Shown: positions 7,836 through 63,375 of the stretch, piece after piece | Layout: each line of letters starts with the position of its first letter | Position numbering within the stretch: position 1 is the stretch's first letter | From: Bacillota bacterium | Lineage (GTDB): Bacteria; Bacillota; Ch66; Ch109 | Assembly (NCBI GenBank): GCA_050952625.1 | Contig: JBMNLH010000001.1 | Location: forward strand, 1-64,000 | Reading direction: 5' to 3' | Length of the DNA stretch: 64,000 nt | Notes under the pieces: model-generated | Told to the model about the DNA's origin: nothing | Database searches by the model: none | Seen by the model: only the letters and a program-made list of their open reading frames with translations | Made by a program: the position numbers and the translations under genes

Positions 7836-7883
7836 TTTAACTATTTGGAATTAATATAGTCCCCAAGGTATCAGGGGACTATA

Positions 7884-42692: not shown

Positions 42693-43126
42693 TTGACAGT
42701 AGCTCCTCAGGTCATTTCGCAGCACCAGCAAAACAAGAATACCAAAGCCACTGTGTTAAATGCAGGTCATAATTGACACAAAATGGATAAAAAATATATT
42801 CTCGGAGCACCCTCAAAAAAGAGAAAAATTGCACAAAACGTCGAATGGAAATAAACACATGCCTTATCATATATTAGCAATAATAGCTATTGTTATGCCC
42901 TATTCTTTACTGCCGAGGCTTCCAAGTCAGTTATATTCCTGCCTTAATTAATTATACGAAGCAGAGGTGAGTTTTGGGGGGCTACCGATTGGCTAATGAC
43001 AAAAAAATAAATTAATCATGTATAACATTTTATGAAAAAGATGAACTGCACTACATCAGCCTTATCACAATCACATCTTAGCAATTCATAAGATGTTTAT
43101 TAATCTCTGCATTGAAATGGGGTTAT

Positions 43127-45517: not shown

Positions 45518-46663
45518 ATGAATCAAATGACAAAGATACTTTTAACATGTATTTTTTCACTATTCATTTTAACTGGATGCGTTGAAAGCCAATTAGCCAT
45601 CCAAAGGGAAAAAGACGCGGGGCAGGGTGAACAGATTGTTGTCGGCGTGCCGGTCCCCCTAGAATTTGCCCGGGAAAATACTAAATTTTTACAAGGCTTA
45701 GATTTAGCCCTGGAAGATATCAACGCGGAGGGGATTAACGGTAAGAAAATTAGTTTGGAAGTCGTAGATGACGAAGGAAATTTTAAAACTGCCGTTGATG
45801 TCGCCCAGCAGTTTAGCCAGAATACCCGGATGGCCGCCGTGATTGGGCATTGGTATTCTGATATTTGCCTGCCGGTAGCCAATATATACGAAGATGCCGG
45901 GATGTTGATGGTGGTTCCCACTGTCTCCAATCCGGAGCTGACAGAAAAAGGATATAAATATGTCATCCAGAGTATTACCAATGACAAAAAAATTGCCGAA
46001 AAAATGTGTGCTCATGCTAAAAACATGGGATATAAAAGAGCAGTTATTTGTTATGAAGAAAGTTCTTATGGTAAAAATCTGGCTGAGGCCATCGAAAAAG
46101 AGGCAGCCGCCAACAATATCAAGATTGTTGATAGAAGTTCCGGTTTAGTAACTGAAGAGCAGTTTAAAAAAGCCTGCGATAAGTGGAAAGCCCTGGAGTA
46201 TGAGGCAGTACTATTAGCCCTGAATATGCCTGAGGGAGCTACTTATATCAGCGAACTTAAAAAAATGCACCAAAATATTGGGATTATTTCGGCTGACGGA
46301 TTAGATGTGAGTAATTTCATTGAGTTGCTTGGCAAAGATGCCGAGGGAGTAGTAATTATTACTACCTATAGTCCTTATAGTAAAAGACGCGAGCTAGATG
46401 AATTTACTCAGAAATATCAAGTGAAATACAATGAAGAACCAGATGTCTGGGCAATCCAGGGGTATGAATCGCTGCAGCTTATTGCCCACGCCATAAAGCA
46501 AACCAATAGCGTTTCAGCGGCAGCCTTAGCCGATTATTTGCGTTCTATGGATCCCTGGCTCTCTGTCTCAGGGAATATTCATTTTAACGAGTATGGAGAA
46601 ATCATTGGAAGGGATGTTTACCAGAAGGCGGTTGTTAACGGACAGTTTCAGTATCTTGATTGA
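45518..46663 (+). CDS. LivJ/K-type substrate-binding lipoprotein
   Basis: Lipobox LTGC; INAEGING, VIGH..S, YG..LA, GYES. Confidence 0.85.
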   Translation: MNQMTKILLTCIFSLFILTGCVESQLAIQREKDAGQGEQIVVGVPVPLEFARENTKFLQGLDLALEDINAEGINGKKISLEVVDDEGNFKTAVDVAQQFSQNTRMAAVIGHWYSDICLPVANIYEDAGMLMVVPTVSNPELTEKGYKYVIQSITNDKKIAEKMCAHAKNMGYKRAVICYEESSYGKNLAEAIEKEAAANNIKIVDRSSGLVTEEQFKKACDKWKALEYEAVLLALNMPEGATYISELKKMHQNIGIISADGLDVSNFIELLGKDAEGVVIITTYSPYSKRRELDEFTQKYQVKYNEEPDVWAIQGYESLQLIAHAIKQTNSVSAAALADYLRSMDPWLSVSGNIHFNEYGEIIGRDVYQKAVVNGQFQYLD

Positions 46664-46689: not shown

Positions 46690-48033
46690 ATGTCAGAGAA
46701 TAAGCTTTTTAGAAAAGTATCCCTGGACCGCTTATCCTCGCCAGAAGAACTGGACCAGCGGTTAAAGGTGGTTTCACCTATCGGATGGGTTGCTCTGATT
46801 GCGGTTGGTATCCTGATAGCAGCGGCTCTAGTTTGGGGATTTTTAGGCAGCATTGCTGATAAGGCTACCGGTCAAGGGATTATTATCTCTAGCGGGGGCA
46901 TTACCGGGATTGTTCACCATGCTAATGGACAGGTAACCGACGTAAGTGTAAACGACGGTGATTATGTTCAAAAAGGTCAGGTAATCGCTCGGATTCAGCA
47001 AACCGAACTTATTGAAGAGATCAACAAATACAAACAGGACCTAGAGGCGGCGCGGGCTATTGATCTGGACAATCTCGAATTGAACAACAGCCGGCTCAAT
47101 TTTAATATCTATGGGAAAATTGGCGAAATTTATAAAAACTTTCAAGCAGCCGAAGCTAATCTCGAGACGCAAAGAACCTATTACAATACGCAAAAAGCTC
47201 AAGCTGAGTATGAGTTGGAGCAGGCCAGGATTCAATATGAAGATAGTCTGGAGAAATACAATAAATACAAAACCCTATACGAAAGTGGAGCGGTATCAGA
47301 GAGAGAATTGACTGATTATGAGCGACAATTGCAAGTTCATGAATTAGCCTACAAAACTAAACAACAAAACTATGTTCAATTGCCCTTATCCCAGTTGCTC
47401 GAGGCAGAAGCTAATTTTGAGGCCCAAAAGCAGTGGCTTAAAGATACCATTACTGTTTCGATTCTAGATCTGGAAAATAATATTGCCAAAATGCAACGAG
47501 ATTTAATGACTAATAGTGAGATAATTGCCAGTGTTTCGGGTCGGATCCTGGAGTTGAGGTTTAAAAAAGGCGACATTGTTCAAGCGGGCAGTGTTATTTG
47601 CACGATTGCCGAAGAAAGAGCCCAAACTGATTCGCTGGAAGCAGTTATTTATGTACCGGTGGACCAAGGCAAAAAAATAACACCCGGTATGGAAGCCAAT
47701 ATCTCGCCGACGACAGTGAAAAAAGAAGAATTCGGCTTTATGCTGGGCAATGTTGTTTCTGTTTCTGAATTCCCATCTAGTGCCCAAGGAATGATGGTCA
47801 CGTTGGGTAACAGTGAACTAGTGCAACAGCTATCCAGAGAAGGTCCGCCCATTGAGGTTCGGGTGAAGCTGATCATGGATAGCAGTACCCCCAGCGGTTA
47901 TAAATGGTCCACCTCGCAAGGGCCACCGATTATTGTTGATGACGGTACTTTTTGTTTAGGGGAAGTAAAAGTTGAAGAAAAAAGGCCGATTAGTATGGTA
48001 ATCCCGTTTATTAAAAAGCTTTTGCCCATCTAA
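46690..48033 (+). CDS. NHLM bacteriocin system secretion (HlyD-family) protein
   Basis: LFRKVSLDRLSSPEELDQ, TM, PTTVKKEEFG, SGYKWSTSQGP, RPIS.VIP. Confidence 0.9.
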   Translation: MSENKLFRKVSLDRLSSPEELDQRLKVVSPIGWVALIAVGILIAAALVWGFLGSIADKATGQGIIISSGGITGIVHHANGQVTDVSVNDGDYVQKGQVIARIQQTELIEEINKYKQDLEAARAIDLDNLELNNSRLNFNIYGKIGEIYKNFQAAEANLETQRTYYNTQKAQAEYELEQARIQYEDSLEKYNKYKTLYESGAVSERELTDYERQLQVHELAYKTKQQNYVQLPLSQLLEAEANFEAQKQWLKDTITVSILDLENNIAKMQRDLMTNSEIIASVSGRILELRFKKGDIVQAGSVICTIAEERAQTDSLEAVIYVPVDQGKKITPGMEANISPTTVKKEEFGFMLGNVVSVSEFPSSAQGMMVTLGNSELVQQLSREGPPIEVRVKLIMDSSTPSGYKWSTSQGPPIIVDDGTFCLGEVKVEEKRPISMVIPFIKKLLPI

Positions 48034-48064: not shown

Positions 48065-50224
48065 TTGCAGGAAACGCAAAAAAGAAGAAAAGTGCCTTCC
48101 ATCTTGCAGATGGAAGCAGTGGAATGCGGTGCTGCATCCCTGGCAATGATTTTTGCCTATTACAAAAAACACCTGCCTCTGGAGAAACTAAGGGTTGATT
48201 GCGGGGTTACTCGTGACGGAGTAAAGGCTAGCAATATCTTAAAAGCTGCCCGGAGACATGGATTTACCGCCAAGGGATTTAGAAAAGAACCGGCCGAGTT
48301 AAAAAATGTGCCTCTGCCGGCGATTATTCATTGGAATTTTAATCACTTTGTTGTCTTAGAAGGATTTCGCAAAGACAAGGTTTATATTAATGACCCGGCT
48401 AGTGGCCCTAGAGTCATTTCCGAAGAAGAATTTGACTTGGCCTTTACCGGGGTAATCTTGACCTTTGAACCGGGACCAGAATTTCAGCCAAGCGGTAAAA
48501 AGCCAAGCTTTGTTGCTTCATTAAAAAATTGGCTGACCGGTTCCAAGGCAGTCATCACCTATTTAGTGCTTATCGGGCTATTAATGGTCATACCCGGTCT
48601 CATAGTGCCGGCCTTTAGCAAGATTTTTATTGATGACGTTTTATTAGGCGGCAAAGGTGATTGGCTTAAACCCTTGCTTTGGGCGATGGGACTAGTTGTC
48701 GTATTGCAGGCAGTCTTGACCTGGTTGCAGCAGCATTACCTGTTGAAAATGGAGACCAAAACAGCGGTAACCAACGCAGGGAAATTCTTTTGGCATATTT
48801 TTCGGTTACCAGTCGTCTTTTTTCAACAGCGCTCAGTTGGCGATATATCCAACCGCATGCAAAGTAACGATCAGGTAGCGGCCTTTTTATCGCGAGATCT
48901 AGCGGAATCAGCCATTGGTTTTTTAACGATTGGGTTTTACTTAATTGTCATGCTGCAATACAGTGTATACCTTACCCTGGTATCTCTTGTAGCTGCTGCT
49001 TTAAGCATCGCCTACCTATATTATTCGTCCAACAAGATTGAAACTTTAAACAAAAAACTCTTACAGGACAAAGGTAAGGTAATGGGTTTCTCAATATCCG
49101 GGTTATATATTATTGAAACGCTAAAAGCTTCGGCCTCAGAGTCGGATTTTTTTGCCAAATGGTCGGGCTACCATGCTAAAGAGATCAATGCCCAACAAGG
49201 CCTGGGCAAAACAACCCAAGTCTTGTTCCACTTACCTGAATTTCTGACTCAGTTTGCTGACGTAATTGTTCTATTTGTGGGCGGTCTGATTATCATCAGT
49301 GGCGACTTAACCATCGGTTCATTGATTGCTTTCCAAGGTCTGGTCGGCAATTTTATGGCACCGGTAAATGGGCTAACGCAAATGGGGATGAAAATGAAGC
49401 AAGTGCAAGGGGATATTAACCGTTTGGAAGATGTTTTTAAGTATAGCATTGATGAGAATGTCAGCCGGGAAGTGCCAGTTGCCAAAGAAGACGATGCACA
49501 CAAAAAGCTGGAAGGTTACGTCGAAATAAAAGACTTGTCATTTGGTTACAATCCCTGGGATCCCCCGCTGATCGAGAATTTTAGTCTGACCCTTAAACCT
49601 GGTTCCCGGGTTGCCTTAGTCGGCAGCTCCGGGAGCGGTAAAAGTACAGTAGCCAAGTTGATTGCCGGTATTTACCAGCCTTGGTCCGGCGAAATACTAT
49701 TTGACGGACAAAGCAGGGAACAGATACCACGCAATGTGATAACCAACTCTATGGCCGTAGTTGACCAGGATATTACCTTATTTGACGGAACGATCAGGGA
49801 AAACCTCGCCATGTGGGACAGCACTATTCCTGAAGCCAGCATTATTCAAGCAGCGAAAGATGCCTGTATTCATGATGATATAGCCATCAGAGACCATGGT
49901 TATGACCATAAAGTCAGTGAAGGCGGGGCTAATTTTAGCGGCGGTCAGAGGCAGCGGCTGGAAATTGCTAGGGCATTGGCTGGAAATCCATCAATCTTGA
50001 TCCTTGACGAGGCAACAAGCGCGCTGGACGTACATACAGAAAACCTGGTGGACCAAAACATTCGCCGTCGGGGTTGTACCTGTGTGATTGTCGCCCATCG
50101 TTTAAGTACAATTAGGGATTGTGATGAAATAATTGTCATGGACCGGGGTAAAATCGTTCAACGCGGCACGCACGATCAATTAAAAAATATCGAAGGGCTT
50201 TATGCACAGCTGATCGGTGCTTAA
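48065..50224 (+). CDS. NHLM ABC exporter, C39 peptidase/ATPase
   Basis: QMEAVECGAASL, HWNFNHFVV, GSSGSGKS, FSGGQRQR, LDEATSALD. Confidence 0.92.
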   Translation: MQETQKRRKVPSILQMEAVECGAASLAMIFAYYKKHLPLEKLRVDCGVTRDGVKASNILKAARRHGFTAKGFRKEPAELKNVPLPAIIHWNFNHFVVLEGFRKDKVYINDPASGPRVISEEEFDLAFTGVILTFEPGPEFQPSGKKPSFVASLKNWLTGSKAVITYLVLIGLLMVIPGLIVPAFSKIFIDDVLLGGKGDWLKPLLWAMGLVVVLQAVLTWLQQHYLLKMETKTAVTNAGKFFWHIFRLPVVFFQQRSVGDISNRMQSNDQVAAFLSRDLAESAIGFLTIGFYLIVMLQYSVYLTLVSLVAAALSIAYLYYSSNKIETLNKKLLQDKGKVMGFSISGLYIIETLKASASESDFFAKWSGYHAKEINAQQGLGKTTQVLFHLPEFLTQFADVIVLFVGGLIIISGDLTIGSLIAFQGLVGNFMAPVNGLTQMGMKMKQVQGDINRLEDVFKYSIDENVSREVPVAKEDDAHKKLEGYVEIKDLSFGYNPWDPPLIENFSLTLKPGSRVALVGSSGSGKSTVAKLIAGIYQPWSGEILFDGQSREQIPRNVITNSMAVVDQDITLFDGTIRENLAMWDSTIPEASIIQAAKDACIHDDIAIRDHGYDHKVSEGGANFSGGQRQRLEIARALAGNPSILILDEATSALDVHTENLVDQNIRRRGCTCVIVAHRLSTIRDCDEIIVMDRGKIVQRGTHDQLKNIEGLYAQLIGA

Positions 50225-50243: not shown

Positions 50244-52931
50244 TTGACCTTGAGTTTTATTGACCGTTTGCAATTCAACCAGATCCAAGCCGAAGGCAAT
50301 AAACCAATACTGTTAACGGACCAGAAAGTATGGCTTGTTAAAGCCGGCAAGGTAGACCTATTTATTGCCCGAGTAATGAACGACGGGATAACCGGCCGCA
50401 GAGAATACCTGTTTTCGGTTGGACCGGGTGATCTGTTTCTAGGATTATCCCCCCATATTGTGCCGGAAGGAGAATTTGGTCTACTGGCGGTAGGGCATAC
50501 CGGCACTATGTTGCTAGAATGTGATGTGCAGCAATTAGCCGTGATCAAAGATGAGCCGGACAGGCAGGAAATAACCGACCGGCTCAGGCACTGGACCGAA
50601 AAGTGGGAAATAGCCGGGATCAAGGCAGATTATCAATTTGACTGGGCAGCAACCTTGCCATTTGAACAAGTGGCCGTTTTTAATCAATCTGCTTTTACTC
50701 AAGCCCTGGCAATGTTGCTTGCTAAGTATCAGCAAGAAGAATTTAGGTATAAGCTTAAGGATGAAAAAGATCAATCTCATATGAATACTGGGCTGCGCCG
50801 GCTGATGAACACCTTGAATCTTAAAGATCGGGACAGCCTGGGGACTGAAGAGCTGGCGATCAATAACCTGCTCTTTAAAGCGTGTCTGGCGGTGGGTAGA
50901 GCCAAAAAGATTAAGATAGTACCATCCTACGGCCTGAAAAAAAATAGAGCGGATTCAAAAGACCTATTAGGGGATATTGCCCAAGCATCACAAATTAGGA
51001 TCCGGCAAATTATTTTAAAAGATAACTGGTGGAAAGAAGACAATGGAGCCCTGCTGGCCTATAAGGAAGCAGATGGCCAACCAGTAGCCTTGCTGCCTGT
51101 TTCACCAACCAAATATCGTTTATACGACCCGGCTGATGACAGTCAGGTGCTGGTAGATAGCCGAGTGGCGGAGACGATCAAGGCTCAGGCTTATACTTTT
51201 TATCGTCCGTTACCCGCCAAGGCTATTACAATAAAAGACTTGCTCCGGTTTTTAGCGGAGGGCATTTGGAAAGCAGACGCGATGACTGTAGTAGCGATGG
51301 GTATCCTGGGTGGCTTGTTGGGGATGCTTACACCAGTGGTAACCGGGATAATCTTCGACCGGGTAATCCCAGATGGTGAAAGACTGCTATTGACCCAAAT
51401 CGGGTTTTTACTGATGGCAATTGCCCTGACTACCTTTGCCTTTAATCTAACCCGGGGTTTTGCGATGCACCGGATCGAAGGGAAAGCGGAAGCGGACCTG
51501 CAAGCCGCTGTATGGGACCGGTTAATTAGTTTGCCTGTGCCCTTTTTTAAGGACTATACTGCCGGCGAATTAGCCGGTCGGGCAATGGGCATCAGCCAGA
51601 TTAGAAGCATTTTATCCGGTGCAGTGGCCAATACCATGATTTCCGGTATCTTTTCGATATTCTATTTTATTCTGTTGTTTTATTACAGTTGGAAACTAGC
51701 ACTTATTTGTACCCTGATTGTGCTTGTTGTCGTGGCGATATCGCTCCTGTTTGGCTACTTGCAAATCCGCTATGAACGACAATTAGTCGATTTAAACAAC
51801 ATGCTGGCGGGGAAAGTTTTTGGCCTGTTAAGCGGGGTTAGCAAAATAAAAACCTCGGGTGCCGAAAAAAGAGCTTTTAATATTTGGGCGCAGGATTTTG
51901 GTCAAGTCAGAGATATTACCTATCGCAAAGAGAACCTAGGCAATAAAATGGCAGTTTTTAATTCGACGGTCAAGATTATTGCCACGGGGATTATCTTTTT
52001 TGCCATGATGAAAATGCAAGGGATAAACTTGGGTGCTGGCAAATTTATTGCTTTTAACTCAGCATTCGGCAGCTTTTTAGGGGCAATGTTAGAGATATCC
52101 GGCGTTGTCCTGCAGCTCAATGTCATTAAACCGCTATACGAAAGGACCAGGCCGATTTTAGAAGCCTTGCCGGAGTACGATCAGCAAAAAGTTGATCCTG
52201 GTGAAATTGAAGGCAATATCGAAGTTAGTCATGTTAATTTCCGTTATCAGCCCGACGGTCCCTTGATCCTGAATGACGTGGTGCTAGAGATAAAAAAAGG
52301 TGACTATGTGGGTATTGTTGGTCCGTCCGGGAGTGGCAAATCTACCCTGTTTAGATTACTGCTCGGCTTTGAAAAACCAGAATCAGGGCAAATCTATTAT
52401 GATCAGCAGGATTTAGAGAATGTGGATATTCGGGCTATTCGTCGCCAGTTAGGCGTGGTTTTGCAAAACGGACAATTAATGGCCGGCAGCATCTTTGATA
52501 ACATCGTGGCGGCCAACCCCGGCTTAACGCTTAGTGATGCCTGGGAAGCGGCCCGGATGGCCGGAATGGAAGAGGACATTAAAAACATGCCCATGGGCAT
52601 GCACACCATGATCAGTGAAGCTGGCAGCACCCTATCAGGCGGCCAAAAGCAAAGGCTGCTCATTGCCCGAGCCATCATATCTCGACCGAAAATCCTTTAT
52701 TTTGATGAAGCAACTAGTGCCTTGGATAATAAAACCCAAAAGGTAGTCAGCGAGAGCCTGGCTAAATTAGGCGCGACGCGGGTCGTAATTGCTCACCGGT
52801 TAAGCACAATTGTCAATTGCAACAAGATAATTGTGATGGAGCGGGGACGAATAGTAGAGCAGGGGGGCTACCAAGAACTGTATGAAAAGGGCGGCCTTTT
52901 TACGCAGCTAGTTAACCGACAGTTGGCTTAG
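50244..52931 (+). CDS. NHLM ABC exporter, second ATPase/permease subunit
   Basis: WWKEDNG, FYRPLP, GPSGSGKS, LSGGQKQR. Confidence 0.9.
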   Translation: MTLSFIDRLQFNQIQAEGNKPILLTDQKVWLVKAGKVDLFIARVMNDGITGRREYLFSVGPGDLFLGLSPHIVPEGEFGLLAVGHTGTMLLECDVQQLAVIKDEPDRQEITDRLRHWTEKWEIAGIKADYQFDWAATLPFEQVAVFNQSAFTQALAMLLAKYQQEEFRYKLKDEKDQSHMNTGLRRLMNTLNLKDRDSLGTEELAINNLLFKACLAVGRAKKIKIVPSYGLKKNRADSKDLLGDIAQASQIRIRQIILKDNWWKEDNGALLAYKEADGQPVALLPVSPTKYRLYDPADDSQVLVDSRVAETIKAQAYTFYRPLPAKAITIKDLLRFLAEGIWKADAMTVVAMGILGGLLGMLTPVVTGIIFDRVIPDGERLLLTQIGFLLMAIALTTFAFNLTRGFAMHRIEGKAEADLQAAVWDRLISLPVPFFKDYTAGELAGRAMGISQIRSILSGAVANTMISGIFSIFYFILLFYYSWKLALICTLIVLVVVAISLLFGYLQIRYERQLVDLNNMLAGKVFGLLSGVSKIKTSGAEKRAFNIWAQDFGQVRDITYRKENLGNKMAVFNSTVKIIATGIIFFAMMKMQGINLGAGKFIAFNSAFGSFLGAMLEISGVVLQLNVIKPLYERTRPILEALPEYDQQKVDPGEIEGNIEVSHVNFRYQPDGPLILNDVVLEIKKGDYVGIVGPSGSGKSTLFRLLLGFEKPESGQIYYDQQDLENVDIRAIRRQLGVVLQNGQLMAGSIFDNIVAANPGLTLSDAWEAARMAGMEEDIKNMPMGMHTMISEAGSTLSGGQKQRLLIARAIISRPKILYFDEATSALDNKTQKVVSESLAKLGATRVVIAHRLSTIVNCNKIIVMERGRIVEQGGYQELYEKGGLFTQLVNRQLA

Positions 52932-52978: not shown

Positions 52979-53521
52979 GTGATCGACAGTATTCTAGTGC
53001 CGATGCAGACCGGGCAAACAGATGTTATGTCCGCGGTTTATATCGAATACTATAAAAAGTTATACAAATATATTCTTTATCGCGTCGGCGATCATAACGT
53101 AGCCGAAGATCTGGTTAGTGAAGTATTTGAAAAAATGTTGACTAATTATTCCACCTATGATGATCAAAAGTCCAAATTCAGTACTTGGCTGTTCGCAATT
53201 GCTCATAATACAGTTATTAACTATTACAAAAAAAGCCAACGCAGGTATACTTTGGGATTAATTAACTGTGAAAAAATAGAGTCAAAATACCAATTGGAGG
53301 ACCTGATTATTGATAAAGAATTAAAAGAGACCCTCCTGCGGGCAATCATGGCTCTAGATGAGCGGCAGCAAAATATAATAGCTTTTAAATTTGGGGCTCG
53401 TCTGACCAATCGGGAAATTGCTAAGATCCTGAATTTAACGGAAAGCAATGTTGGAACTATTATATATCGGTCATTAAAACGTTTAAAAGATATCCTGAAG
53501 GAACAAGGGGTCATCTATTAG
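52979..53521 (+). CDS. ECF sigma-70 factor
   Basis: AEDLVSEVF, FSTWLFAIAHN, EIAKIL.LTESNVG..IYR. Confidence 0.92.
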   Translation: MIDSILVPMQTGQTDVMSAVYIEYYKKLYKYILYRVGDHNVAEDLVSEVFEKMLTNYSTYDDQKSKFSTWLFAIAHNTVINYYKKSQRRYTLGLINCEKIESKYQLEDLIIDKELKETLLRAIMALDERQQNIIAFKFGARLTNREIAKILNLTESNVGTIIYRSLKRLKDILKEQGVIY

Positions 53522-53548
53522 TCTAACTGGATAAAGAGGTGGTTAAAG

Positions 53549-53845
53549 ATGCTGGAAAACAATGGCTTAGAGGCATTTATTTCAGACCTTGACAAAATCA
53601 TATTCGGGGAGCCGATCGACCCCTCGGAATACGAGCAGTATGATACGGAACACAAAGAATTGCTATACCTGGCCCAGTTGCTGGCGCAGGCAGATTATAC
53701 CCCGGAAACCAGGGGCGCGAGGGAAAGGTTATGGTCAAAGATGCACAAAAACGGGGAACTGGAAGACGATGACCTTGATCTGGTGGCCGGCGGGGTTAAT
53801 TTGCATGAACTGTTTGAAAAAATAATTAAAAGGAAAGATATTTAG
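53549..53845 (+). CDS. putative anti-sigma factor ending in a double-glycine leader motif
   Basis: Directly after ECF sigma; helical N-terminus FISDLDKII...ELLYLAQLL; ELEDDDLDLVAGG then 16 aa. Confidence 0.6.
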   Translation: MLENNGLEAFISDLDKIIFGEPIDPSEYEQYDTEHKELLYLAQLLAQADYTPETRGARERLWSKMHKNGELEDDDLDLVAGGVNLHELFEKIIKRKDI

Positions 53846-53967
53846 TTGGGTGTTTTTGCGGCAATGGATTGTTTTATCAGCTGACGGGGTCGATTTGTTA
53901 TCGATAAGAAAAATCTCTGGAAACGCGAGATTAATGTGATACTTGATGGCTTCGGTTGTATTAGTAG

Positions 53968-55041
53968 TTGAAAAAAAATGAGGTATATGCCATGCCCAGT
54001 GCACAGTTATTATTTTTAAAAGACAATCAGTTTAATTATAGTGAAATCTTGGCCTGGGATGATATCCCTCTGCCAGATGAACCGTTTGTCGATGCTTGGC
54101 AAGAGTATATCCAGGATATTGCCCGCCAAGGTGCCTTGGATGCTTTGAGCAAAAGACTGGTTCAACTTCAGTTCCCCATTCAAGCGGGTATGAGCACTAA
54201 TCCCAATTACCTGCTAGCCACGAGAAGAGGTTTACCTACCACTACCATGCCGGAAGCGACCGGCACCCAGTTTGAGGATCCATCCAATTTAAAAGTATAC
54301 CTTCATCAGACTTTAGCCGGGCGAATTCCGGTAATTGAAACGAGCAATAGATCTGATTTTGAAACCCTGGTGCGGGTGTTTTCCCGCCGTAACGAACCGG
54401 TGCCTATCCCAGCCTCAATGGGTGCTTGTATGATTAAGGGCTATAACAATTGGGACCGGGTAGCTAAATACAAACAGCAGCAGGCAGAAAATTTTGATTT
54501 TAATCAAATGAAAGGACAAAAACATCTCTATCAGGACGTATTCTTAATTTTGACGGACAATGGCTATAGCGGGGTGCCGGCAGAAATGTTAGGGTTAGCT
54601 GAGGATGAGTGGCGCAGGCTATCAATGATAATTCGCCGGGAGCACGAAGCAACCCATTATTTTACCCTGCGTTGCCTAGGCTCCGCCAGGAACCATTTAT
54701 TAGATGAATTTATCGCTGATTACATGGGCATTGTTGCTGCCGCCGGCCGATATCGAGCTGATTGGTTTCTCTGCTTTATGGGTCTGGAAAAGTACCCGGC
54801 TTTTCGGTCTGGGGGCCGGCTGACAAATTATCTAAATAACGTCGAGCTATCTGAGCCAGCCTTTGAATTATTAAAAACATATGTGAAGCAGGCGGCGGAG
54901 AATTTAGAAAGAATTGGCCAGAAGTATGATGATCAGGTTTACACGGCGCGAGGAAAATATGAAATGCTCCTACGCTTAACCAAAACAAATTTAATGGAGT
55001 TAGCCGCTGCAGACGCCGAGGAAAGAATTTTTGGTTACTAG
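53968..55041 (+). CDS. HExxH-motif protein of RiPP clusters (DUF7005-like)
   Basis: EPVPIPASMGA, GYNNW, RREHEATHYFT, DEFIADY. Confidence 0.6.
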   Translation: MKKNEVYAMPSAQLLFLKDNQFNYSEILAWDDIPLPDEPFVDAWQEYIQDIARQGALDALSKRLVQLQFPIQAGMSTNPNYLLATRRGLPTTTMPEATGTQFEDPSNLKVYLHQTLAGRIPVIETSNRSDFETLVRVFSRRNEPVPIPASMGACMIKGYNNWDRVAKYKQQQAENFDFNQMKGQKHLYQDVFLILTDNGYSGVPAEMLGLAEDEWRRLSMIIRREHEATHYFTLRCLGSARNHLLDEFIADYMGIVAAAGRYRADWFLCFMGLEKYPAFRSGGRLTNYLNNVELSEPAFELLKTYVKQAAENLERIGQKYDDQVYTARGKYEMLLRLTKTNLMELAAADAEERIFGY

Positions 55042-55272: not shown

Positions 55273-56301
55273 ATGGAAGGCAATGTAAAACGGTATCTTG
55301 ACAGCATTGGCCCAAGTTTGCCGGCAGAGATTATTTCTCTGGAAACCAAACGAAAAATTGATAAAATGGCTGTTCTGTTCAGTGATTTTGCCGCCAGCGA
55401 ATATATCATGGAAACCAACCTTAATTCGGCGGTTGCCGAGGCAGATTTTTCGTTTCGGATTCTTACGTCAGAAAAGGACTGTTTAATGAAGGGATTTAAT
55501 AGTTTTAGTATCTCTGGCCTGGCGACTGACGCAACCTGGATGAAGGTGATTGACTTTGTGCACTTCTGGCCACCGGATATCCCGGATATTTGGCTGGAAA
55601 TGGATTACGGAGAGTTTGCCAAGGACGTACCGCAGCCCTGTTTTTTCTTTAACGCTACCCAAATCAAAGAAGGTACCGAAATAAATAACGACCTGTTGCA
55701 TAGTTCATTAAGCCGGTTGCTGGATTCTAGCCAGTTAGCGACAATATGGCCAAACTTGACCGAGATTATTCATCAACTACCGCCAGAAGTTGGTCTATTC
55801 CAAATAGGCACCATGCTCGCCCGCCATCAAGACCGGGTTAGGGTTTTTACCGCTGAACTAACTCAGGAGCAGACGTTAGCCTACCTGGCCAGGATTAATT
55901 GGCCGGGTGATTTTCCAAAACTGGAGCAGTTGTTTAATCTGGTGCATCCCCATAGTGATGGTCAGTATATCGTGGATTTTGATGTAACGAGGCAGGGGAT
56001 ATCGGAAAAAATCGGGATAAATTTTGGCCTGGCCAAAAAACAAGAATTGCCCGCCTTTTTAGCGAATTTAACTCGGCACGGATTATGCAATGAGGTTAAA
56101 CAACAGGGCGTTTTAGCCTGGTCAGGCAGCAAAGGGTGTTTTTTAGGGCCAGCGTATGGTTTCTCGGCTCTGGTAAAAGATATATCTCACTTTAAAATGA
56201 GTCTTATCCCTGAGGAAAGTGTGATGATGAAGGCTTATCTCCGGATAATGGGTATCTACTTAAAAGAATTATTCACAACCAGGACTGCTGGCAAATTGTA
56301 A
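55273..56301 (+). CDS. hypothetical tailoring protein, possibly aromatic (ABBA) prenyltransferase fold
   Basis: WLEMD, FQIGTMLAR, SHFK...KAYL motifs; fold inferred only. Confidence 0.4.
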   Translation: MEGNVKRYLDSIGPSLPAEIISLETKRKIDKMAVLFSDFAASEYIMETNLNSAVAEADFSFRILTSEKDCLMKGFNSFSISGLATDATWMKVIDFVHFWPPDIPDIWLEMDYGEFAKDVPQPCFFFNATQIKEGTEINNDLLHSSLSRLLDSSQLATIWPNLTEIIHQLPPEVGLFQIGTMLARHQDRVRVFTAELTQEQTLAYLARINWPGDFPKLEQLFNLVHPHSDGQYIVDFDVTRQGISEKIGINFGLAKKQELPAFLANLTRHGLCNEVKQQGVLAWSGSKGCFLGPAYGFSALVKDISHFKMSLIPEESVMMKAYLRIMGIYLKELFTTRTAGKL

Positions 56302-56331
56302 TGCTAAGCCAGGGAGGCTAAGATAGCTAAG

Positions 56332-56592
56332 ATGAACCAACCGGCTTATAAAGAAATGCAACAGATTATAAAGCAGGTAGCTCGAGAGGCGATGCTAGAT
56401 AAAAGCTACCGCGAGCTATGTTTAACTGACAGTCGGACCGCCCTCCAAATCATTATCGATAAAACCAATAGCACGATAGAAGTGCCGGACAATATCTTTT
56501 TTCAGGAAGAAGATGGGGAAAGCCTTGACAGTAATGGCATAGTTTACATTTTACCTCCATTTCTTAAACCATCGTGGCTTTTGAATTCATAG
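56332..56592 (+). CDS. NHLP-leader-like small protein lacking GG and core
   Basis: AMLDKSYRELCLTD...YILPP resembles the nitrile-hydratase-like leader. Confidence 0.55.
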   Translation: MNQPAYKEMQQIIKQVAREAMLDKSYRELCLTDSRTALQIIIDKTNSTIEVPDNIFFQEEDGESLDSNGIVYILPPFLKPSWLLNS

Positions 56593-56799: not shown

Positions 56800-57135
56800 A
56801 TGCTAATGGAGCAAAAATTAATTCAATTACAAGCTAAGTTAGAGGCCGATACCGGTTTATTAGAAAAGTTATTTTCTTTGGAAAGCCCCGTAGAGGTGCA
56901 AAATTTCTTAAAAGATCAAGGTCTGGACTTCACCCTGGAGGAAATCAATGTTGTCAGAGAGGCACTGGTTAAGGTTTTGGAAAAAGGTGGCGGTGAGCTT
57001 TCCGATGAGGATCTAGAGAATGTTGCCGGTGGATCTATAACCGTAGCGGCTGTTGTAGGGATTGTTGGAGCAATTGGTGGGCTTGTTGGTGCCCTAGGAG
57101 GAGTCGTGGACCTAGCAGTTCGATCAAGATGGTAG
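56800..57135 (+). CDS. Nif11-type leader RiPP precursor; core SITVAAVVGIVGAIGGLVGALGGVVDLAVRSRW
   Basis: GLDFTLEEI...GELSDEDLENVAGG; AGGAGG RBS. Confidence 0.88.
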   Translation: MLMEQKLIQLQAKLEADTGLLEKLFSLESPVEVQNFLKDQGLDFTLEEINVVREALVKVLEKGGGELSDEDLENVAGGSITVAAVVGIVGAIGGLVGALGGVVDLAVRSRW

Positions 57136-57358
57136 AGTTTATGTAATGATCGGTGGAGAAGAGATAGGAGCCCAATAAGCAACTATTTAGAAGCCATGAA
57201 TCAGATGAGTGTATTGAGGTTCATGGCTTTCCTCCAACCTTGTGTTGTTCAAATTAACTTATGCTTGGATGATCCGATTATTTACCCAAAAATAAGTTGA
57301 AACTTAACAATTGTAACGGTAGCAAAAACAATATATTAAAACTAATCAAAGAGGATGT

Positions 57359-57664
57359 TTGACCATAGAAGAAAAATTAACGCAATTAAAAACTAAGCTA
57401 GAGGCGGGATAAGAGCCTGGCAGAAAAGTTATTTGCTCTGGAAACCCCCGAAGAGGTACAAAGTTTCTTAAAAGGTGAAGGTCTGGAATTCAGCCTGGAA
57501 GAAATCAATACTGTAAGAGAGGCACTGGTTAAGTTTTGGAAAAAGGTGGCGGTGAGCTTTCCGAGGCGGATCTAGAAAATGTTGCTGGTGGATCACAACT
57601 ACTGATAAACCCGGATTTGTTAGAGATAAAGATAAATATACCAATACTCCCAACAAGATGGTAG
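57359..57664 (+). pseudogene. second Nif11-type precursor with two 1-bp indels; core SQLLINPDLLEIKINIPILPTRW
   Basis: DNA paralog of 56800; extra G at ~57407, missing G at ~57533; ELSEADLENVAGG. Confidence 0.75.
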
Positions 57665-57790
57665 AGTTTGAAAATTAATCAAAGGGATGCTTGACTACGG
57701 AAGAAAGAATAACTCAATTAAAAACCAAGTTCGATGCTAACTTATGCTTAACGGATTAGTAATTCTGATTTTAAATTAGGGGGTTATATT

Positions 57791-58144
57791 ATGGAAGAAA
57801 AAATTTTGTCGACTTTGGAGCTAAACGAAGTGATTGCCCAAAAAGCCAGGGAAAATGAGGAATTTCGCTTGGCTCTCTTAAATGATCCCAAGGCAGCCAT
57901 CGCAAAGGAATTTGGAGTTTTGTTGCCAGATAACACCAAAGTAGAGGTTCACGTGGAAAGCCCGAGAGTATTGCACTTAATAATCCCAGCCGGTAATGCC
58001 GATGAGTTGACTGATGACCAGTTGGAAGACGTTGCGGGCGGGGCACTTACAGATCTGCTGAAACTTATAGATCCTGGGAAAATGGTGATAGTGGCCTATG
58101 GAGTACCGTACCCTGGAGGCTCAGGCTGGAAATGGCCTTTTTAA
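57791..58144 (+). CDS. NHLP-leader RiPP precursor; core ALTDLLKLIDPGKMVIVAYGVPYPGGSGWKWPF
   Basis: KARENEEFRLALLNDPKAAI...HLIIP...ELTDDQLEDVAGG. Confidence 0.9.
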   Translation: MEEKILSTLELNEVIAQKARENEEFRLALLNDPKAAIAKEFGVLLPDNTKVEVHVESPRVLHLIIPAGNADELTDDQLEDVAGGALTDLLKLIDPGKMVIVAYGVPYPGGSGWKWPF

Positions 58145-58288
58145 ATTATAAATAAGCCGACTGGGTTATATTTAGAAGCCATGAATCGGGTGAGGTAGTT
58201 CATGACTTTACTCTAATTATGCGTGTTGTTGATGTTAACTTATGCTTAATGGATTAATAATTCTAATTTTAAATTAGGCGGTTATATC

Positions 58289-58666
58289 ATGGAAGAGAAA
58301 ATTTTGTCGACTTTGGAGCTTAACGAACTGATTGTCAAAAAAGCCAGGGAAAATGAGGAATTTCGCTTGGCTCTCTTACATGATCCCAAGTTAGCTATCG
58401 CAAAGGAATTTGGAGTGGTGTTTCCAGATAACACCAAGGTAGAGGTTCACGTGGAAAGCCCGAGAGTATTGCACTTAATAATCCCAGCTGGTAATGCCGA
58501 TGAGTTGACTGATGACCAGTTGGAAGACGTTGCGGGCGGAGCACTTCAAGATCTGGCGAATCTAGATCTGATGAAAAAATATGATGATTTTGGGAGACAA
58601 CAGATGATAATTACCAATTTAGTATCGCACCCTGGAGGCTCAGGGTGGAAATGGCCTTTTAGATAA
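58289..58666 (+). CDS. NHLP-leader RiPP precursor; core ALQDLANLDLMKKYDDFGRQQMIITNLVSHPGGSGWKWPFR
   Basis: Leader nearly identical to 57791; VAGG cleavage motif. Confidence 0.9.
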   Translation: MEEKILSTLELNELIVKKARENEEFRLALLHDPKLAIAKEFGVVFPDNTKVEVHVESPRVLHLIIPAGNADELTDDQLEDVAGGALQDLANLDLMKKYDDFGRQQMIITNLVSHPGGSGWKWPFR

Positions 58667-58685: not shown

Positions 58686-60215
58686 ATGAAGATGATTAAT
58701 AAACCGATAAGCGCGGTTTGGGAAATAACGATGGGCTGTAACATGCGGTGCAAGCACTGCGGCTCCAGCTGCCATGATGCTCTCCCTGGCGAGCTAAGCA
58801 CCGACGAAGCCCTCCAATTATGTGATGACCTCGGGGAACTTGGAGTCGAATGGGTCACCCTATCGGGTGGCGAGCCGACCACCCGCAAGGATTGGCATTT
58901 AATTGCCGAGCGGTTAACCCAAAACGGCGTGATTCCCAACCTGATTACGAACGGTTGGCTCTTTAACGAAGAGATTCTTGACAAAGCGGTTAAAGCGGGC
59001 GTGGGGACGATTGCCTTCAGCTTGGATGGCTTGCAAGAAAACCATGATTTCCTGCGCCGAGAAGGTTCATACCAGAGAATCATGCGGGCCATTGAGTTAT
59101 GCCGGCAGCGGAACCAGGCAGTAACTGCCATCACCACAATCAACAGGCTGAACCTGGGTGAGCTAAAGGAGATGAAACAAGAACTGGTCAGTCGGGGGGT
59201 CAAACAATGGCAGGTTCAGATGGGATTCCCCATGGGAAACATGGCTGATCACCGCAGTTTGGTCATTGGGCCCGCTGATGTCGATCTGGTAATTGATTTG
59301 GCTTACCAGTGCCTGCTGGATTCTTCGATCGAAGTGATGCTGGGTGACTGTATCGGCTACTATAACTTGAAAGAGATCGAAGTATTTAAAAAAAGGTGCG
59401 GGGGTACGTACCCCCGGCAGGGCTGCACGGCTGGCAAATACACTTTTGGCATTTTGCATAACGGTGACATATTGGGTTGCACTTCTATCCGGGATAAGGA
59501 GTTTATTGAAGGTAATATTCGAAATACCTCGCTAAAAGTAATCTGGGAAAACCCGAATAGCTTTGCCTGGAACCGCAACCTCAAGAAAGAGGATCTGACC
59601 GGTTTTTGCCAAAAATGTCGGTTCGGAGACCGTTGTCTGGGCGGGTGTTCAAACACAAAACTGACCACCGGGGGAAGCATCTACGCCGAAAACCAGTATT
59701 GTTCCTATAATTATGCTTACAAACAGAGAATCAAGCTGTTTGAAAAAAAACAATCGGTTGAGGAACTTTACGTCATGGCCCACAACTATGCACAAAAAGG
59801 CTACTGGCAATTGGCGGAATCTGCCCTGCAAGTTGCCCTGCGGCGGAATGGTGCAGACAATGACCTTGATCTATTAAACCTTTACGGATACGTTTGTTTT
59901 AGACTCGGCAATTATCGGGTTGCACTGGAAGCCAATGAAAAAGTGCTGCAAAGGGAGCCCGACGCTGTTTACGCCCTGAAAGGCAAGGGACTTTGCCTCC
60001 ATCGCCTGGGTCACTCAGAAGAGGGAATAGACCTCCTGAAAAAAGCAGTGTCTTTGACTGACGCCAGTTTTATGGATCCGTATTTAGATCTGGCAATTGT
60101 CCTGGCTGAAATTGGTCGTCAGGATGAAGCCATTTCGGTAATTGAAACGGGACGTCAAAAATCGGCGGAATTTATCGGGCAAAGTCAAGCCTTATATCAA
60201 CAATTACTAGGATAA
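58686..60215 (+). CDS. radical SAM/SPASM peptide maturase (PlpX splicease-like) with C-terminal TPRs
   Basis: AVWEITMGCNMRCKHCGS, ELST.E, GGEP..RKDW, WQVQ...PMG, IGYY, SPASM CTAG...GC...CxxC.....C...C; TPR tail. Confidence 0.85.
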   Translation: MKMINKPISAVWEITMGCNMRCKHCGSSCHDALPGELSTDEALQLCDDLGELGVEWVTLSGGEPTTRKDWHLIAERLTQNGVIPNLITNGWLFNEEILDKAVKAGVGTIAFSLDGLQENHDFLRREGSYQRIMRAIELCRQRNQAVTAITTINRLNLGELKEMKQELVSRGVKQWQVQMGFPMGNMADHRSLVIGPADVDLVIDLAYQCLLDSSIEVMLGDCIGYYNLKEIEVFKKRCGGTYPRQGCTAGKYTFGILHNGDILGCTSIRDKEFIEGNIRNTSLKVIWENPNSFAWNRNLKKEDLTGFCQKCRFGDRCLGGCSNTKLTTGGSIYAENQYCSYNYAYKQRIKLFEKKQSVEELYVMAHNYAQKGYWQLAESALQVALRRNGADNDLDLLNLYGYVCFRLGNYRVALEANEKVLQREPDAVYALKGKGLCLHRLGHSEEGIDLLKKAVSLTDASFMDPYLDLAIVLAEIGRQDEAISVIETGRQKSAEFIGQSQALYQQLLG

Positions 60216-62109: not shown

Positions 62110-63375
62110 ATGGCAGACTTCCAAAATAATAAGCAGAGGAAATTCATATTTCGCGCCGAACCAGGCTGTTTAAGGGTCTATAACTTAACAGATAATAAAG
62201 TCATTAAAATTAATGGACCTAATTTAGTTTTATTTGAACAATGGTTAAACAGTGGGGAAGATAACAACTTTATCACAACCCTCAAAGAAACCGGTTTACT
62301 TGATCTTAATCTGGCGGACCAGGAACGAGATGCTGTAAAGATATTGATTGATGAGTGTCGTCAGGTGGAAGCCCCTTTGCATGCTCTGCGGGCACCGGAG
62401 ATCATGAACATAGAGTTAACTTCCCGCTGTCCGTTAAGGTGTCCTCAGTGCTATTGCGATTTGGACCGAGGGAAGGATATCCCTAAGGAGGTTGCCCTAA
62501 AATACATCAAGCAAGCAGCCCGTTTAAAAATACCGTTTATCAACTTAAGCGGCGGGGAAACCCTGGTTTATCCTTTTTTAACTGATCTGTTAAGGGCTAT
62601 TCAGGCGGAAGGTTTGAACTCAGCGATTGCCATTAGCGGCTGGGGATTCGACTCTGCTAAACTTGAGGAATTAAAAGAGGCGGGCGTAGATGAGATCTAT
62701 GTCTCTTTAAATGGCTCAACACCAGAGGTGAACGCGAAATCTCGCGCTGGCTACGAATTGGCCATCAAGGCGCTTAAGATATTACAAGCTGACCAACAAG
62801 TGCCCTATTTTATTAACTGGGTGGCTCGCAATGACAATGTCGAGGATTTCCCCAACTTAGTCAACTTAGCGAAAGAGGCGGGAGTTAAAGGGATAGTGAT
62901 CTTAGAGTCAAAGCCAGATGCCGATTATGCTCTGCAAGCGGTTATCAGTAAAGAAAACTTTTTAAAACTCGCTCAGTACCTGAAGCAACACAAGCAGTCG
63001 GAATTACCGATCGCGGTTGAACCCTGCTTTTCGCCGCTGCGCGCGTATATTAATAACTACTACCTTTGGAATCGGAATACCGGGGTCAATAAAGGCTGTG
63101 GGGCTGGTCGCAACGCAATGGCCGTAGATGTGGACGGAAACTTAATCCCCTGTCGGCATTTATTATACCCTGAAAGATACGATACCATTGAAGATTACTG
63201 GTGGAACTCAACAGTACTGGATAAATTGCGGAGATATGAAGAAAACAAAGGTGAACCTTGTCGGAGCTGTTACTTAACGCAGAATTGCCTTTCGTGCCGC
63301 GCCGTAGCGGATAAGGTTGGCAAGAATCTTTTCAGTGGCAATAATTATTGTCCAGTGGGGGGCATCGAAAAATGA
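62110..63375 (+). CDS. radical SAM/SPASM maturase with N-terminal RRE-like extension
   Basis: CPLRCPQC, LSGGE, CGAG...G.LIPC...CRSC.....C..C. Confidence 0.85.
   Translation: MADFQNNKQRKFIFRAEPGCLRVYNLTDNKVIKINGPNLVLFEQWLNSGEDNNFITTLKETGLLDLNLADQERDAVKILIDECRQVEAPLHALRAPEIMNIELTSRCPLRCPQCYCDLDRGKDIPKEVALKYIKQAARLKIPFINLSGGETLVYPFLTDLLRAIQAEGLNSAIAISGWGFDSAKLEELKEAGVDEIYVSLNGSTPEVNAKSRAGYELAIKALKILQADQQVPYFINWVARNDNVEDFPNLVNLAKEAGVKGIVILESKPDADYALQAVISKENFLKLAQYLKQHKQSELPIAVEPCFSPLRAYINNYYLWNRNTGVNKGCGAGRNAMAVDVDGNLIPCRHLLYPERYDTIEDYWWNSTVLDKLRRYEENKGEPCRSCYLTQNCLSCRAVADKVGKNLFSGNNYCPVGGIEK

Follow-up and report, generated by a model that had tools for sequence, protein, structure and literature searches.

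Sigma factors of the extracytoplasmic function (ECF) type rank among the largest families of bacterial signalling proteins, and how their anti-sigma factors sense a signal is unknown for many groups. In RseA/sigmaE of E. coli and RsiW/sigmaW of B. subtilis (with PrsW and RasP), a membrane anti-sigma factor is subject to regulated proteolysis; the textbook topology of such proteins is a cytoplasmic N-terminal domain, one transmembrane helix and a sensor domain outside the cell. FlgM is an anti-sigma factor that the flagellar type III apparatus exports, so that it leaves the cell whole, and the pathway-specific ECF/anti-sigma pairs MibX/MibW and PspX/PspW drive the lantibiotic clusters for microbisporicin and planosporicin. 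Here we analyze a stretch of 64,000 nucleotides from a Bacillota bacterium (assembly GCA_050952625.1, contig JBMNLH010000001.1, positions 1 to 64,000), referred to as the window, in which a protein of 98 residues is encoded directly downstream of an ECF sigma gene, within a cluster for peptides that ribosomes synthesize and that are modified post-translationally (RiPPs). Its C-terminal part resembles the double-glycine leaders of the cluster's own precursors, which belong to the Nif11 and NHLP families that Haft et al. in 2010 are said to have described together with the NHLM exporter.

On balance we lean, though not strongly, towards the reading that the 98-residue protein is an anti-sigma factor equipped with a leader mimic and gated by the C39 peptidase domain of the exporter encoded beside it. 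In the literature that we searched, no anti-sigma factor is described as having a double-glycine or leader motif. The 2021 reclassification of ECF sigma factors (PMC7826278) does not mention bacteriocin, C39 or DUF4367 in its main text, and its supplementary genomic-context tables may list this sigma group; the same paper regards soluble anti-sigma variants as likely to be under-detected.

The 98-residue protein and its adjacent sigma factor

The two genes and the parts of the smaller product are these:

52979..53521, + strand: ECF sigma factor of 180 residues (Sigma70_r2 2.5e-17, Sigma70_r4_2 6.7e-10, TIGR02937 1.9e-28)
53549-53845, + strand: open reading frame of 98 residues directly 3' of the sigma gene, with a three-helix domain, a motif and a 16-residue tail
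53549..53746, + strand: predicted anti-sigma domain, residues 1-66, with helices 3-18, 33-49 and 55-67 in the monomer model
53753..53794, + strand: putative leader-mimic motif GELEDDDLDLVAGG, residues 69-82 (L71 = -12, L76 = -7, V79 = -4, G81-G82 = -2/-1)
53795..53845, + strand: 16-residue tail VNLHELFEKIIKRKDI and stop codon, from translation; the putative 'cargo' side

The genes are separated by 27 nt that include a GAGGTGG ribosome-binding site, and the gene order and the C-terminal end ...KNGELEDDDLDLVAGGVNLHELFEKIIKRKDI are as described in the initial annotation. By its domain matches the larger product is an ordinary ECF sigma factor; among NCBIfam models it matches the BldN-family TIGR02952 best, with 152 bits against a cutoff of 206 bits, and about 90 ortholog clusters are found at an identity of at least 55%, followed by a steep fall. 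The 98-residue protein has no family match in Pfam or NCBIfam. A word-indexed search for relatives yielded 12 proteins among 16 candidates, and HMMER, run in full over 1.84 billion representatives, retrieved 22, 15 of them at E <=1e-10. The resulting alignment (A3) has 35 rows that are 32-88% identical to the window protein, including four sequences added by translating loci; left out were P0006, a truncated protein of 72 residues with a diverged end lacking the motif, and P0030, a 370-residue repeat protein that is not a relative.

Genome position, homology and modelling all point to an anti-sigma role. We examined 27 loci, and in every one of them a related, co-oriented ECF sigma gene lies directly upstream: in the window, at 6/6 loci from a species-genome collection, at 13/13 from a sample of 401 genomes of the phylum, and at 7/7 recovered with a profile of the N-terminal part only. 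The two genes are never more than 27 nt apart, and frequently overlap by 4-11 nt. Without the motif, residues 1-57 still match the N-terminal ends of two single-pass membrane proteins with C-terminal DUF4367 domains (301 and 320 residues; hhalign Prob 97.5, P 7.9e-12), and the same domain aligns to that of a zinc-ribbon subfamily described below (Prob 98.2, P 3.4e-14); the per-genome E-values for the membrane-type relatives are 1.5e-7 and 4.3e-4. Six such relatives, of 301-332 residues, share with the window protein their N-terminal 55-60 residues, which are followed by one strongly hydrophobic helix (hydropathy 1.88-2.74), and the two that were scanned both have a C-terminal DUF4367 (3.7e-11 and 1.5e-12), as is classical for membrane anti-sigma factors. 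The protein in the window has no transmembrane segment, its highest 19-residue Kyte-Doolittle mean being 0.62 as compared with 2.74 and 2.32 in the membrane-anchored relatives.

A model of the complex between the sigma factor and the 98-residue protein, a test proposed in the initial annotation, scores ipSAE 0.82, 0.82 and 0.81, whereas the best of three controls scores 0.00, which we read as likeness and not as proof of binding. Agreement between runs covers at least 67% of contacts, with a partner pLDDT of at least 61; of 80 solved complexes 58 attain the pass mark, as do 2 of 110 mismatched pairs, a calibration that is only approximate for the alignments of our own that were used here. In the small protein the modelled contacts fall on residues 7-19, 34-52 and 57-61, and in the sigma factor on region 2 (25-50) and region 4 (106-173), so that in the model the N-terminal three-helix domain (approximately residues 1-66) would clamp both sigma regions. 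Interface residues are more conserved than the remainder of residues 1-67 (0.63 versus 0.48; one-sided Mann-Whitney p = 0.011). Structure searches with the free monomer (pLDDT 68.8) gave a best E of 0.85 in Foldseek against the PDB and a best Z of 5.2 in VIA, to generic helical hairpins; the anti-sigma factor RsdA (3vep_X; Z 3.9, rmsd 2.8 over 46 residues) is within the noise. Homology to membrane-anchored proteins in the anti-sigma position, strict synteny and the complex model together make it highly probable that the 98-residue protein is the anti-sigma factor of the adjacent sigma, as first proposed, and on the alignments its domain is an undescribed family that includes canonical membrane forms.

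Could the gene instead encode an ordinary RiPP precursor with an unusually long leader, its sigma binding an artefact and its position beside a sigma gene without meaning? It sits in a cluster with several precursors, and NF038167, the NCBIfam model for double-glycine leaders of bacteriocins, is matched by 27/35 members (best E 2.6e-5). There is also a weak alignment along most of its length (residues 5-82) to a solved Nif11-domain protein, 9zn4_A, the sole PDB profile match at E 0.13. This last similarity consists mostly of the shared GG end, and once that is removed a comparison of residues 1-66 with seven Nif11 leaders yields a probability of 0.3% in hhalign, on which ground we reject a Nif11 ancestry for the N-terminus; a weak leader_NHLP match occurs in 4/35 family members (best E 0.0036). 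The initial annotation is right in assigning the N-terminus to neither the Nif11 nor the NHLP family. Moreover, the N-terminal domain is homologous to that of membrane proteins that lack the GG, lie outside RiPP clusters and are always found 3' of a related sigma gene, the tail has neither the Trp nor the Cys of cognate cores, and the complex model separates cleanly from its controls. We consider an ordinary precursor highly improbable.

Leader motif and its candidate readers

The motif is the best conserved segment across the 35-member family, and its likeness to the leader ends of the neighbouring precursors is thus not a matter of chance; the two ends quoted in the initial annotation, GELSDEDLENVAGG for Nif11 and DELTDDQLEDVAGG for NHLP, are both present in the window. 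Mean column conservation reaches 0.82 in the motif (residues 69-82), as compared with 0.54 in residues 1-67 and 0.44 in the tail. A42, L45, D73, L76, D77, V79, A80 and G82 are invariant, and L71 and G81 are conserved in 97% and 91% of the rows. The leader rule for C39 peptidases, as set out in PMC6363468, asks for a hydrophobic side chain at -12, then Leu at -7 and either Val or Ile at -4, with positions -3 to -1 taken by small residues of which the last two are GG, GA or GS. These places are occupied by L71, L76, V79, A80, G81 and G82, each 91-100% conserved. The same source describes the side chains at -12, -7 and -4 as sitting in a hydrophobic groove of the C39 peptidase domain of LahT, where changing Leu-7 or Leu-12 impairs substrate processing. 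Judged by this pattern, the 98-residue protein carries a genuine and strongly conserved C39-type leader motif.

The anti-sigma domain occurs with four kinds of C-terminus, three of leader type and one of membrane type:

10 loci, subfamily 1 (the kind in the window): motif ELxDDELDxVAGG and a tail of 9-25 residues rich in Lys, Asn and Asp
9 loci and 35 protein clusters, subfamily 2: motif ELDEEDLxYVAAG and about 30 residues with CPxCG...CPxC
2 loci, subfamily 3: motif ELSDDELEGISAAG and a 16-residue tail, with a ThcOx-like oxidase and a YcaO cyclodehydratase encoded alongside a GG precursor in the cluster
6 loci, membrane type: a transmembrane helix in 6/6, DUF4367 where scanned, and no motif

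Thus the leader motif recurs in three subfamilies with unrelated tails, all within RiPP clusters. The tail of subfamily 2 is zinc-ribbon-like (Zn_ribbon_3 at E 0.0026, below cutoff), and this subfamily includes proteins annotated as hypothetical in Desulfitobacterium hafniense, D. dehalogenans and D. dichloroeliminans. The VAGG end singled out by the initial annotation is conserved within subfamily 1, where GG is mostly kept, and is not conserved in the two sister subfamilies, where GG is mostly replaced by AG or AA. Such drift, together with the evident domain shuffling that has produced three different C-terminal ends, would suit a motif that is merely the inert relic of a fusion between an anti-sigma and a precursor gene, in a plain soluble anti-sigma factor controlled by other means. 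Set against this, the motif is the most conserved part of proteins as little as 32% and at most 88% identical overall and is invariant at the C39 contact positions, and it is retained in three subfamilies whose sigma factors are only ∼35-40% identical; a relic thus seems to us scarcely credible.

The exporter encoded just upstream of the sigma gene supplies a possible reader of the motif:

46690..48033, + strand: HlyD-type membrane-fusion subunit of an NHLM exporter (HlyD_3 9.1e-11, Biotin_lipoyl_2 1e-11)
48065..50224, + strand: C39 peptidase-containing ATP-binding cassette (ABC) exporter, or PCAT (Peptidase_C39 1.7e-40, model positions 2-132/133; ABC_membrane and ABC_tran)
50244..52931, + strand: second NHLM ABC subunit, lacking a peptidase domain (TIGR03797 NHLM_micro_ABC2 1.8e-286, above cutoff)

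The peptidase domain of the PCAT is intact, its residues Q15, C21, H94 and D110 fall within motifs that we take to hold the C39 catalytic set, and this protein is a candidate partner or protease for the leader motif. Across the survey of homologs, sigma adjacency and the leader motif are kept and the C39 exporter is mostly kept: an NHLM-type C39 exporter lies within ∼10 kb at 16/19 assessable leader-type loci but at 0/5 of the membrane type (Fisher's exact p = 0.0013, a value that overstates the co-occurrence since the genomes are related and not independent). Two leader-type loci (L008 and L042) and one membrane-type locus (L048) were too short to judge. Leader-type loci also contain double-glycine precursors and maturases, and no GG-motif open reading frame and no exporter are present in the five assessable membrane-type loci, whose neighbours include a glycosyl-hydrolase-like protein and a protein with a Cu-amine-oxidase N-domain; one has an isolated ABC ATPase.

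The anti-sigma identity, the conservation of the motif, its co-occurrence with the exporter and the promoter with its regulon are computational results, to which we add the following course of events as a proposal. The transmembrane helix and DUF4367 sensor of the membrane relatives would have been replaced by a copy of the precursors' C-terminal recognition helix (L-12, L-7, V-4, A-3, G-2, G-1), with the short tail that follows being dispensable. The C39 domain of the PCAT (48065-50224) would dock onto this leader mimic and, in the GG-bearing subfamily of the window, cut after G82; docking, or a cut followed by decay of the 82-residue remnant, would then release the sigma factor. Release might come about through steric competition between sigma and C39, as no more than a few residues separate the motif helix from the last helix in contact with sigma, or alternatively through degradation of the remnant, whose exposed ...LVAGG end is reminiscent of the Ala-rich termini by which RseA and RsiW, once cleaved, are marked for ClpXP. 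Precursors bearing the same helix would compete for the C39 domain, such that precursor transcription would be matched to free export capacity, and in subfamily 2, where the exporter itself appears to be sigma-dependent, the same wiring would add positive feedback. We rate it slightly better than an even chance that the exporter's C39 domain is the partner and that the contact modulates the sigma factor.

Several observations weigh against this scheme. The domain that binds sigma lies N-terminal to the GG, so that cleavage would take away only the 16-residue tail and leave this domain whole in the cytoplasm, and a further step is needed to free the sigma factor. Three leader-type loci have no PCAT, namely the two subfamily-3 YcaO loci (±10 kb) and L006 (10 kb, on one side). 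In register with V-4 and L-7, the dipeptide of subfamily 2 is AG in 19, AA in 6 and GG in 9 of 34 sequences, subfamily 3 reads ISAA/G, and AG occurs in 3/35 members of subfamily 1, whereas all of the neighbouring precursors seen keep GG; the usual C39 motifs named in PMC6363468 are GG, GA and GS only. As to the anti-sigma assignment, residues 62-98 make no confident sigma contact in the model, and because sigma/anti-sigma complexes have already been solved the model's passing score may reflect memory. Searches of the 35 members at E up to 10 gave no match to anti-sigma families in Pfam (e.g. zf-HC2, RskA) or in NCBIfam, and for the DUF4367 relatives, too, an anti-sigma role is deduced from the place of their genes and from their topology. 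Finally, no autoregulatory loop is evident in the window. The prevalence of AG and AA in the two sister subfamilies means that docking fits at least as well as cleavage, and docking may be the step that all subfamilies share, cleavage being a trait of subfamily 1.

The AG and AA variants, in speaking against universal C39 cleavage, also give some room to a different reader of the leader mimic: a cytoplasmic leader-binding protein, such as a maturase or RiPP recognition element-type domain, a general protease, or the product of the next gene, that would sequester or degrade the anti-sigma factor. The two subfamily-3 loci, in which no PCAT lies within ±10 kb, encode YcaO/ThcOx enzymes with winged-helix leader-binding domains (DUF4423_like 1.7e-15, HTH_57 4e-14). 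The next gene in the window is as follows:

53968..55041, + strand: DUF7005 protein (PF22541 1.4e-128), the first gene 3' of the promoter motif described below

DUF7005 adjoins the sigma/anti-sigma pair at subfamily-1 loci as the first gene of the putative sigma-dependent operon, and in 6/6 orthologs it has an invariant HEAxH (H226, E227, H230) together with H243, D246, E247 and D251, suggesting by these residues a zinc metallopeptidase; its location makes it a candidate for clearing leaders or the anti-sigma remnant. We found no literature on DUF7005, and its fold searches all stay below the stated noise level, with a best E of 0.83 in Foldseek and a best Z of 5.0 in VIA, where several zincin peptidases appear at Z 4.0-4.7. 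It is, however, absent from most subfamily-2 loci, and the conserved positions -12, -7, -4, -3 and -1 are those read by the C39 domain, whose PCAT is present at most leader-type loci. Maturases usually read a more N-terminal part of Nif11 and NHLP leaders, and this part is absent from the 98-residue protein. A cytoplasmic reader thus seems to us rather unlikely, if the least so of the alternatives considered.

The tail bears on a further question, raised in the initial annotation, of whether the 16 residues are simply a secreted bioactive core. The real cores in the window and in L001-L005 end in or near Trp (...RSRW, ...PTRW, GSGWKWPF(R), ...DINW, ...TSRW, ...MVSW, ...LVAW), which may be the site modified by the radical SAM-SPASM enzymes. 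The subfamily-1 tails, 9-25 residues rich in K, N, L, D and E, end in Trp in 0/35 cases and contain Cys in 2/35, which counts against such a core. What survives of the idea is a dual role, in which the anti-sigma factor is also the precursor of an exported peptide and the PCAT secretes the tail (16 residues here, ∼30 Cys-rich residues in subfamily 2) as a signal, like the double-glycine pheromones of streptococci. The tail is at the exact position of PCAT cargo, a 7TM-PAS histidine kinase is encoded just upstream of sigma at subfamily-2 loci, and the subfamily-1 tails show a pattern xNLN-hydrophobic-acidic-KK (N84 83%, K94 74%) that resembles short, amphipathic, Lys-terminated competence pheromones. 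Nevertheless, the tail is conserved less than any other segment, varies in length and is unrelated between subfamilies, no receptor kinase is encoded in the window cluster, and the subfamily-2 tail is more like a structural zinc ribbon than a pheromone. We regard a dual role as unlikely.

The analogy with FlgM offered initially does not hold in the form stated. PCAT exporters cut off the leader and secrete the part C-terminal to the GG (PMC6363468), and the sigma-binding domain is on the leader side. Export of this domain itself in the manner of FlgM is, from the layout of the protein, unlikely.

Promoters and the gene string

The position of a shared promoter motif suggests what the sigma factor controls. 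The clade-specific consensus is TGT(G/A)ATAC-N14-(T/C)GTAT, which in the window lies here:

53936..53963, + strand: ECF-type promoter motif GTGATAC-N13-TTGTATTA, directly 3' of the anti-sigma gene

The subfamily-1 variant, GTG(A/C)TA(C/G)-N13-TTGTAT(A/T)A, is found just downstream of the anti-sigma gene at 10/10 loci, whether the gene that comes next is DUF7005 or a precursor. The subfamily-2 variant, TGTAAT(A/G)N-N14-CGTATTAA(C/A), occurs about three times per locus and always with a 14-nt spacer, as compared with a chance expectation of ∼0.14 per locus at <=3 mismatches by our arithmetic; in a Desulfitobacterium with the zinc-ribbon subfamily, the predicted start signal would be TGTAATAC-N14-CGTATTAAC. 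These sites precede the precursor gene or genes, a divergent radical SAM-SPASM gene, and the operon of binding-protein, HlyD, ABC1 and ABC2 genes. Those of subfamily 3 precede the precursor-sigma-anti-sigma operon and the YcaO gene, and at the membrane-type loci the promoter lies just upstream of the sigma gene in 5/5 cases, the usual autoregulatory position for an ECF sigma factor, showing that the motif is the promoter type of the clade.

A scan of the entire assembly (9 contigs, 2.9 Mb) finds three sites at <=1 mismatch. With a position weight matrix built from the ten subfamily-1 sites, the window site ranks first at 38.3 bits, a circular result as the site is in the matrix; second is a site in contig C2 at 31.4 bits, and third place drops to 17.8. 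The C2 site is ∼230 nt upstream of an orphan Nif11-type GG precursor, which is frameshifted and has a core ending in ...ERW, so that the only two strong sites in the genome both stand ahead of GG-precursor genes. This orphan (at about 81855-82430, - strand) is preceded by a partial duplicate of its own 5' end. The positions of the mapped promoters suggest that the sigma factor is a pathway-specific activator of the peptide genes and, in subfamily 2, of the exporter genes too. It would recognise TGTGATAC-N14-TGTAT and drive the operon starting at 53968 as well as the orphan precursor elsewhere in the genome, and we consider it probable that the peptide operon is driven from the mapped promoter.

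An early guess at the promoter, GATACTT-N11-TTGTAT with 3 mismatches, was uninformative, with 49 matches in the window versus 43.7 expected; it is conservation across loci and the strict genome scan that make the present motif meaningful. The two NHLP genes share a further upstream element, TAACTTATGCTTAA(C/T)GGATTA(G/A)TAA (57738-57762 and 58236-58260), with a degenerate third copy near 57330. Despite its promoter-like layout (TTAACTT-N11-ATTA(A/G)TAA) it has no score with the subfamily-1 matrix, and we do not count it as a target of the sigma factor; it may be a duplicated promoter of another kind.

The genes discussed here belong to a single co-oriented string on the + strand that runs from 43112 to the end of the window; the stretch is also present in metagenome runs from anaerobic digesters and bioreactors. 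Successive gaps between the exporter, sigma and anti-sigma genes are 19-47 nt, no predicted terminator lies between them, no terminator-like site is predicted on the + strand between 50674 and 55425, and a housekeeping-type promoter match lies ahead; from this arrangement, a single transcript starting there appears to cover the exporter, sigma and anti-sigma genes. The remaining features of the string are listed below.

42773..42800, + strand: promoter-like TTGACA-16-TATATT, the best sigma-70-like match (11/12; a consensus match only), 5' of the exporter/sigma/anti-sigma string
43112..45472, + strand: first gene of the string, a 786-residue protein with a C-terminal MFS domain (Pfam MFS_1 2.3e-21), conserved at subfamily-1 loci
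45518..46663, + strand: periplasmic-binding-protein-like gene (Peripla_BP_6 9.1e-44), ahead of the exporter in subfamilies 1 and 2
55273..56592, + strand: two conserved genes, of 342 residues (55273-56301) and 86 residues (56332-56592)
56800..57135, + strand: Nif11-type precursor (TIGR03798 1.3e-08) with leader end GELSDEDLENVAGG and a Gly-rich hydrophobic core ending in ...RSRW
57536..57664, + strand: remnant of a Nif11-type precursor (GELSEADLENVAGG/SQLL...PTRW), its upstream leader region (from ∼57400) out of frame
57791..58666, + strand: two NHLP-type precursors (57791-58144 and 58289-58666; TIGR03793 9.5e-22 and 4.2e-21), both with leader end DELTDDQLEDVAGG and GSGWKWPF in the cores
58686..60215, + strand: candidate radical SAM-SPASM-TPR maturase (Radical_SAM 9.5e-27, SPASM 2.3e-09, TPR)
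62110..63375, + strand: second radical SAM-SPASM enzyme (Radical_SAM 9.8e-19, SPASM 2.2e-4)

The MFS-protein gene and the 342- and 86-residue genes have orthologs in L001, L002, L031 and L032; the 342- and 86-residue products have no Pfam or NCBIfam match. Orthologs of the Peripla_BP_6 gene adjoin HlyD at 16 loci, and a Leu/Ile/Val-type gene of this kind precedes HlyD at every exporter-bearing locus of subfamilies 1 and 2, as an unusual fourth member of the NHLM export unit. At subfamily-2 locus L022 a histidine kinase with seven transmembrane helices and PAS and HisKA_3 domains (6820-8559, Pfam) is encoded just upstream of the sigma/anti-sigma pair, and open reading frames of similar size (579-584 residues) lie upstream of sigma in L024, L025 and L026; this kinase could control expression of the pair. 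Locus L028 (G155:C4, 9044-14814) is a decayed version of subfamily 2, in which the sigma gene is split into open reading frames of 105 and 113 residues, HlyD is truncated, a 49-residue fragment of the C39 exporter remains, and a second copy of the exporter is preceded by an inserted gene of 391 residues that runs on the opposite strand.

Relation to described systems

The element that is new here is an input module mimicking the leader of the pathway's own precursor; ECF/anti-sigma control, coupling to export and regulated proteolysis are already known. In its broadest form the proposal is that an anti-sigma family has swapped its membrane sensor for a RiPP leader mimic, with the exporter peptidase or another leader reader acting as sensing partner or site-1 protease in a substrate-competition switch, and that this switch has been reused in at least three chemically distinct classes of RiPP (Trp-terminated radical SAM peptides, Cys-rich radical SAM-SPASM peptides and YcaO azol(in)e peptides). 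We judge the case for and against this general form to be evenly balanced. If true, it would be a new way of coupling gene expression to the state of a secretion or processing machine and, to our knowledge, the first anti-sigma input based on an exporter signal for ABC/PCAT exporters. The sigma/anti-sigma pair and its promoter with 14-nt spacing offer a handle for switching on silent Nif11/NHLP, radical SAM and YcaO clusters, either by supplying the sigma factor without its anti-sigma factor or by driving the mapped promoters directly. The pair could also provide an orthogonal, protease-gated sigma switch for synthetic biology, and the architecture is present in cultured Desulfitobacterium species.

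Comparison with the known systems shows what is shared and what is not. PrsW is described as the site-1 protease of RsiW in PMC3482391. As with RseA and RsiW, an ECF sigma factor would here be held by an N-terminal domain, a C-terminal module would serve as input, a dedicated first protease is proposed, and the remnant would be cleared. In contrast to these, the protein has 98 residues and neither a transmembrane helix nor an outside sensor; the first cut is proposed to fall to an exporter's C39 domain, and the putative recognition element is a copied substrate signal. MibX/MibW and PspX/PspW are likewise ECF/anti-sigma pairs that drive the biosynthetic operons of RiPP clusters, but MibW and PspW are membrane proteins that probably sense the mature product outside and are not known to have a leader motif. 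The principle of regulation by molecular mimicry is shared with NepR/PhyR of the alphaproteobacterial general stress response (PMC4814048), with the difference that PhyR mimics sigma to capture the anti-sigma factor, whereas here the anti-sigma factor would mimic a precursor leader and its proposed partner is a peptidase or exporter. The Nif11 and NHLP precursors that accompany the three-gene NHLM exporter (TIGR03794/03796/03797) share with the 98-residue protein the exporter genes, the C-terminal leader helix and the GG site, and differ from it in that its N-terminal 66 residues are neither Nif11 nor NHLP and its tail lacks the features of the cognate cores. Finally, as in FlgM/sigma28 and in anti-activators secreted by type III systems, such as ExsE, an inhibitor carries the substrate signal of an export machine and would thereby tie a transcription factor to the state of that machine; unlike FlgM, the sigma-binding domain of the 98-residue protein lies on the leader side and would not itself be secreted, only a short tail would be exportable, and the machine is an ABC exporter, not a type III apparatus.

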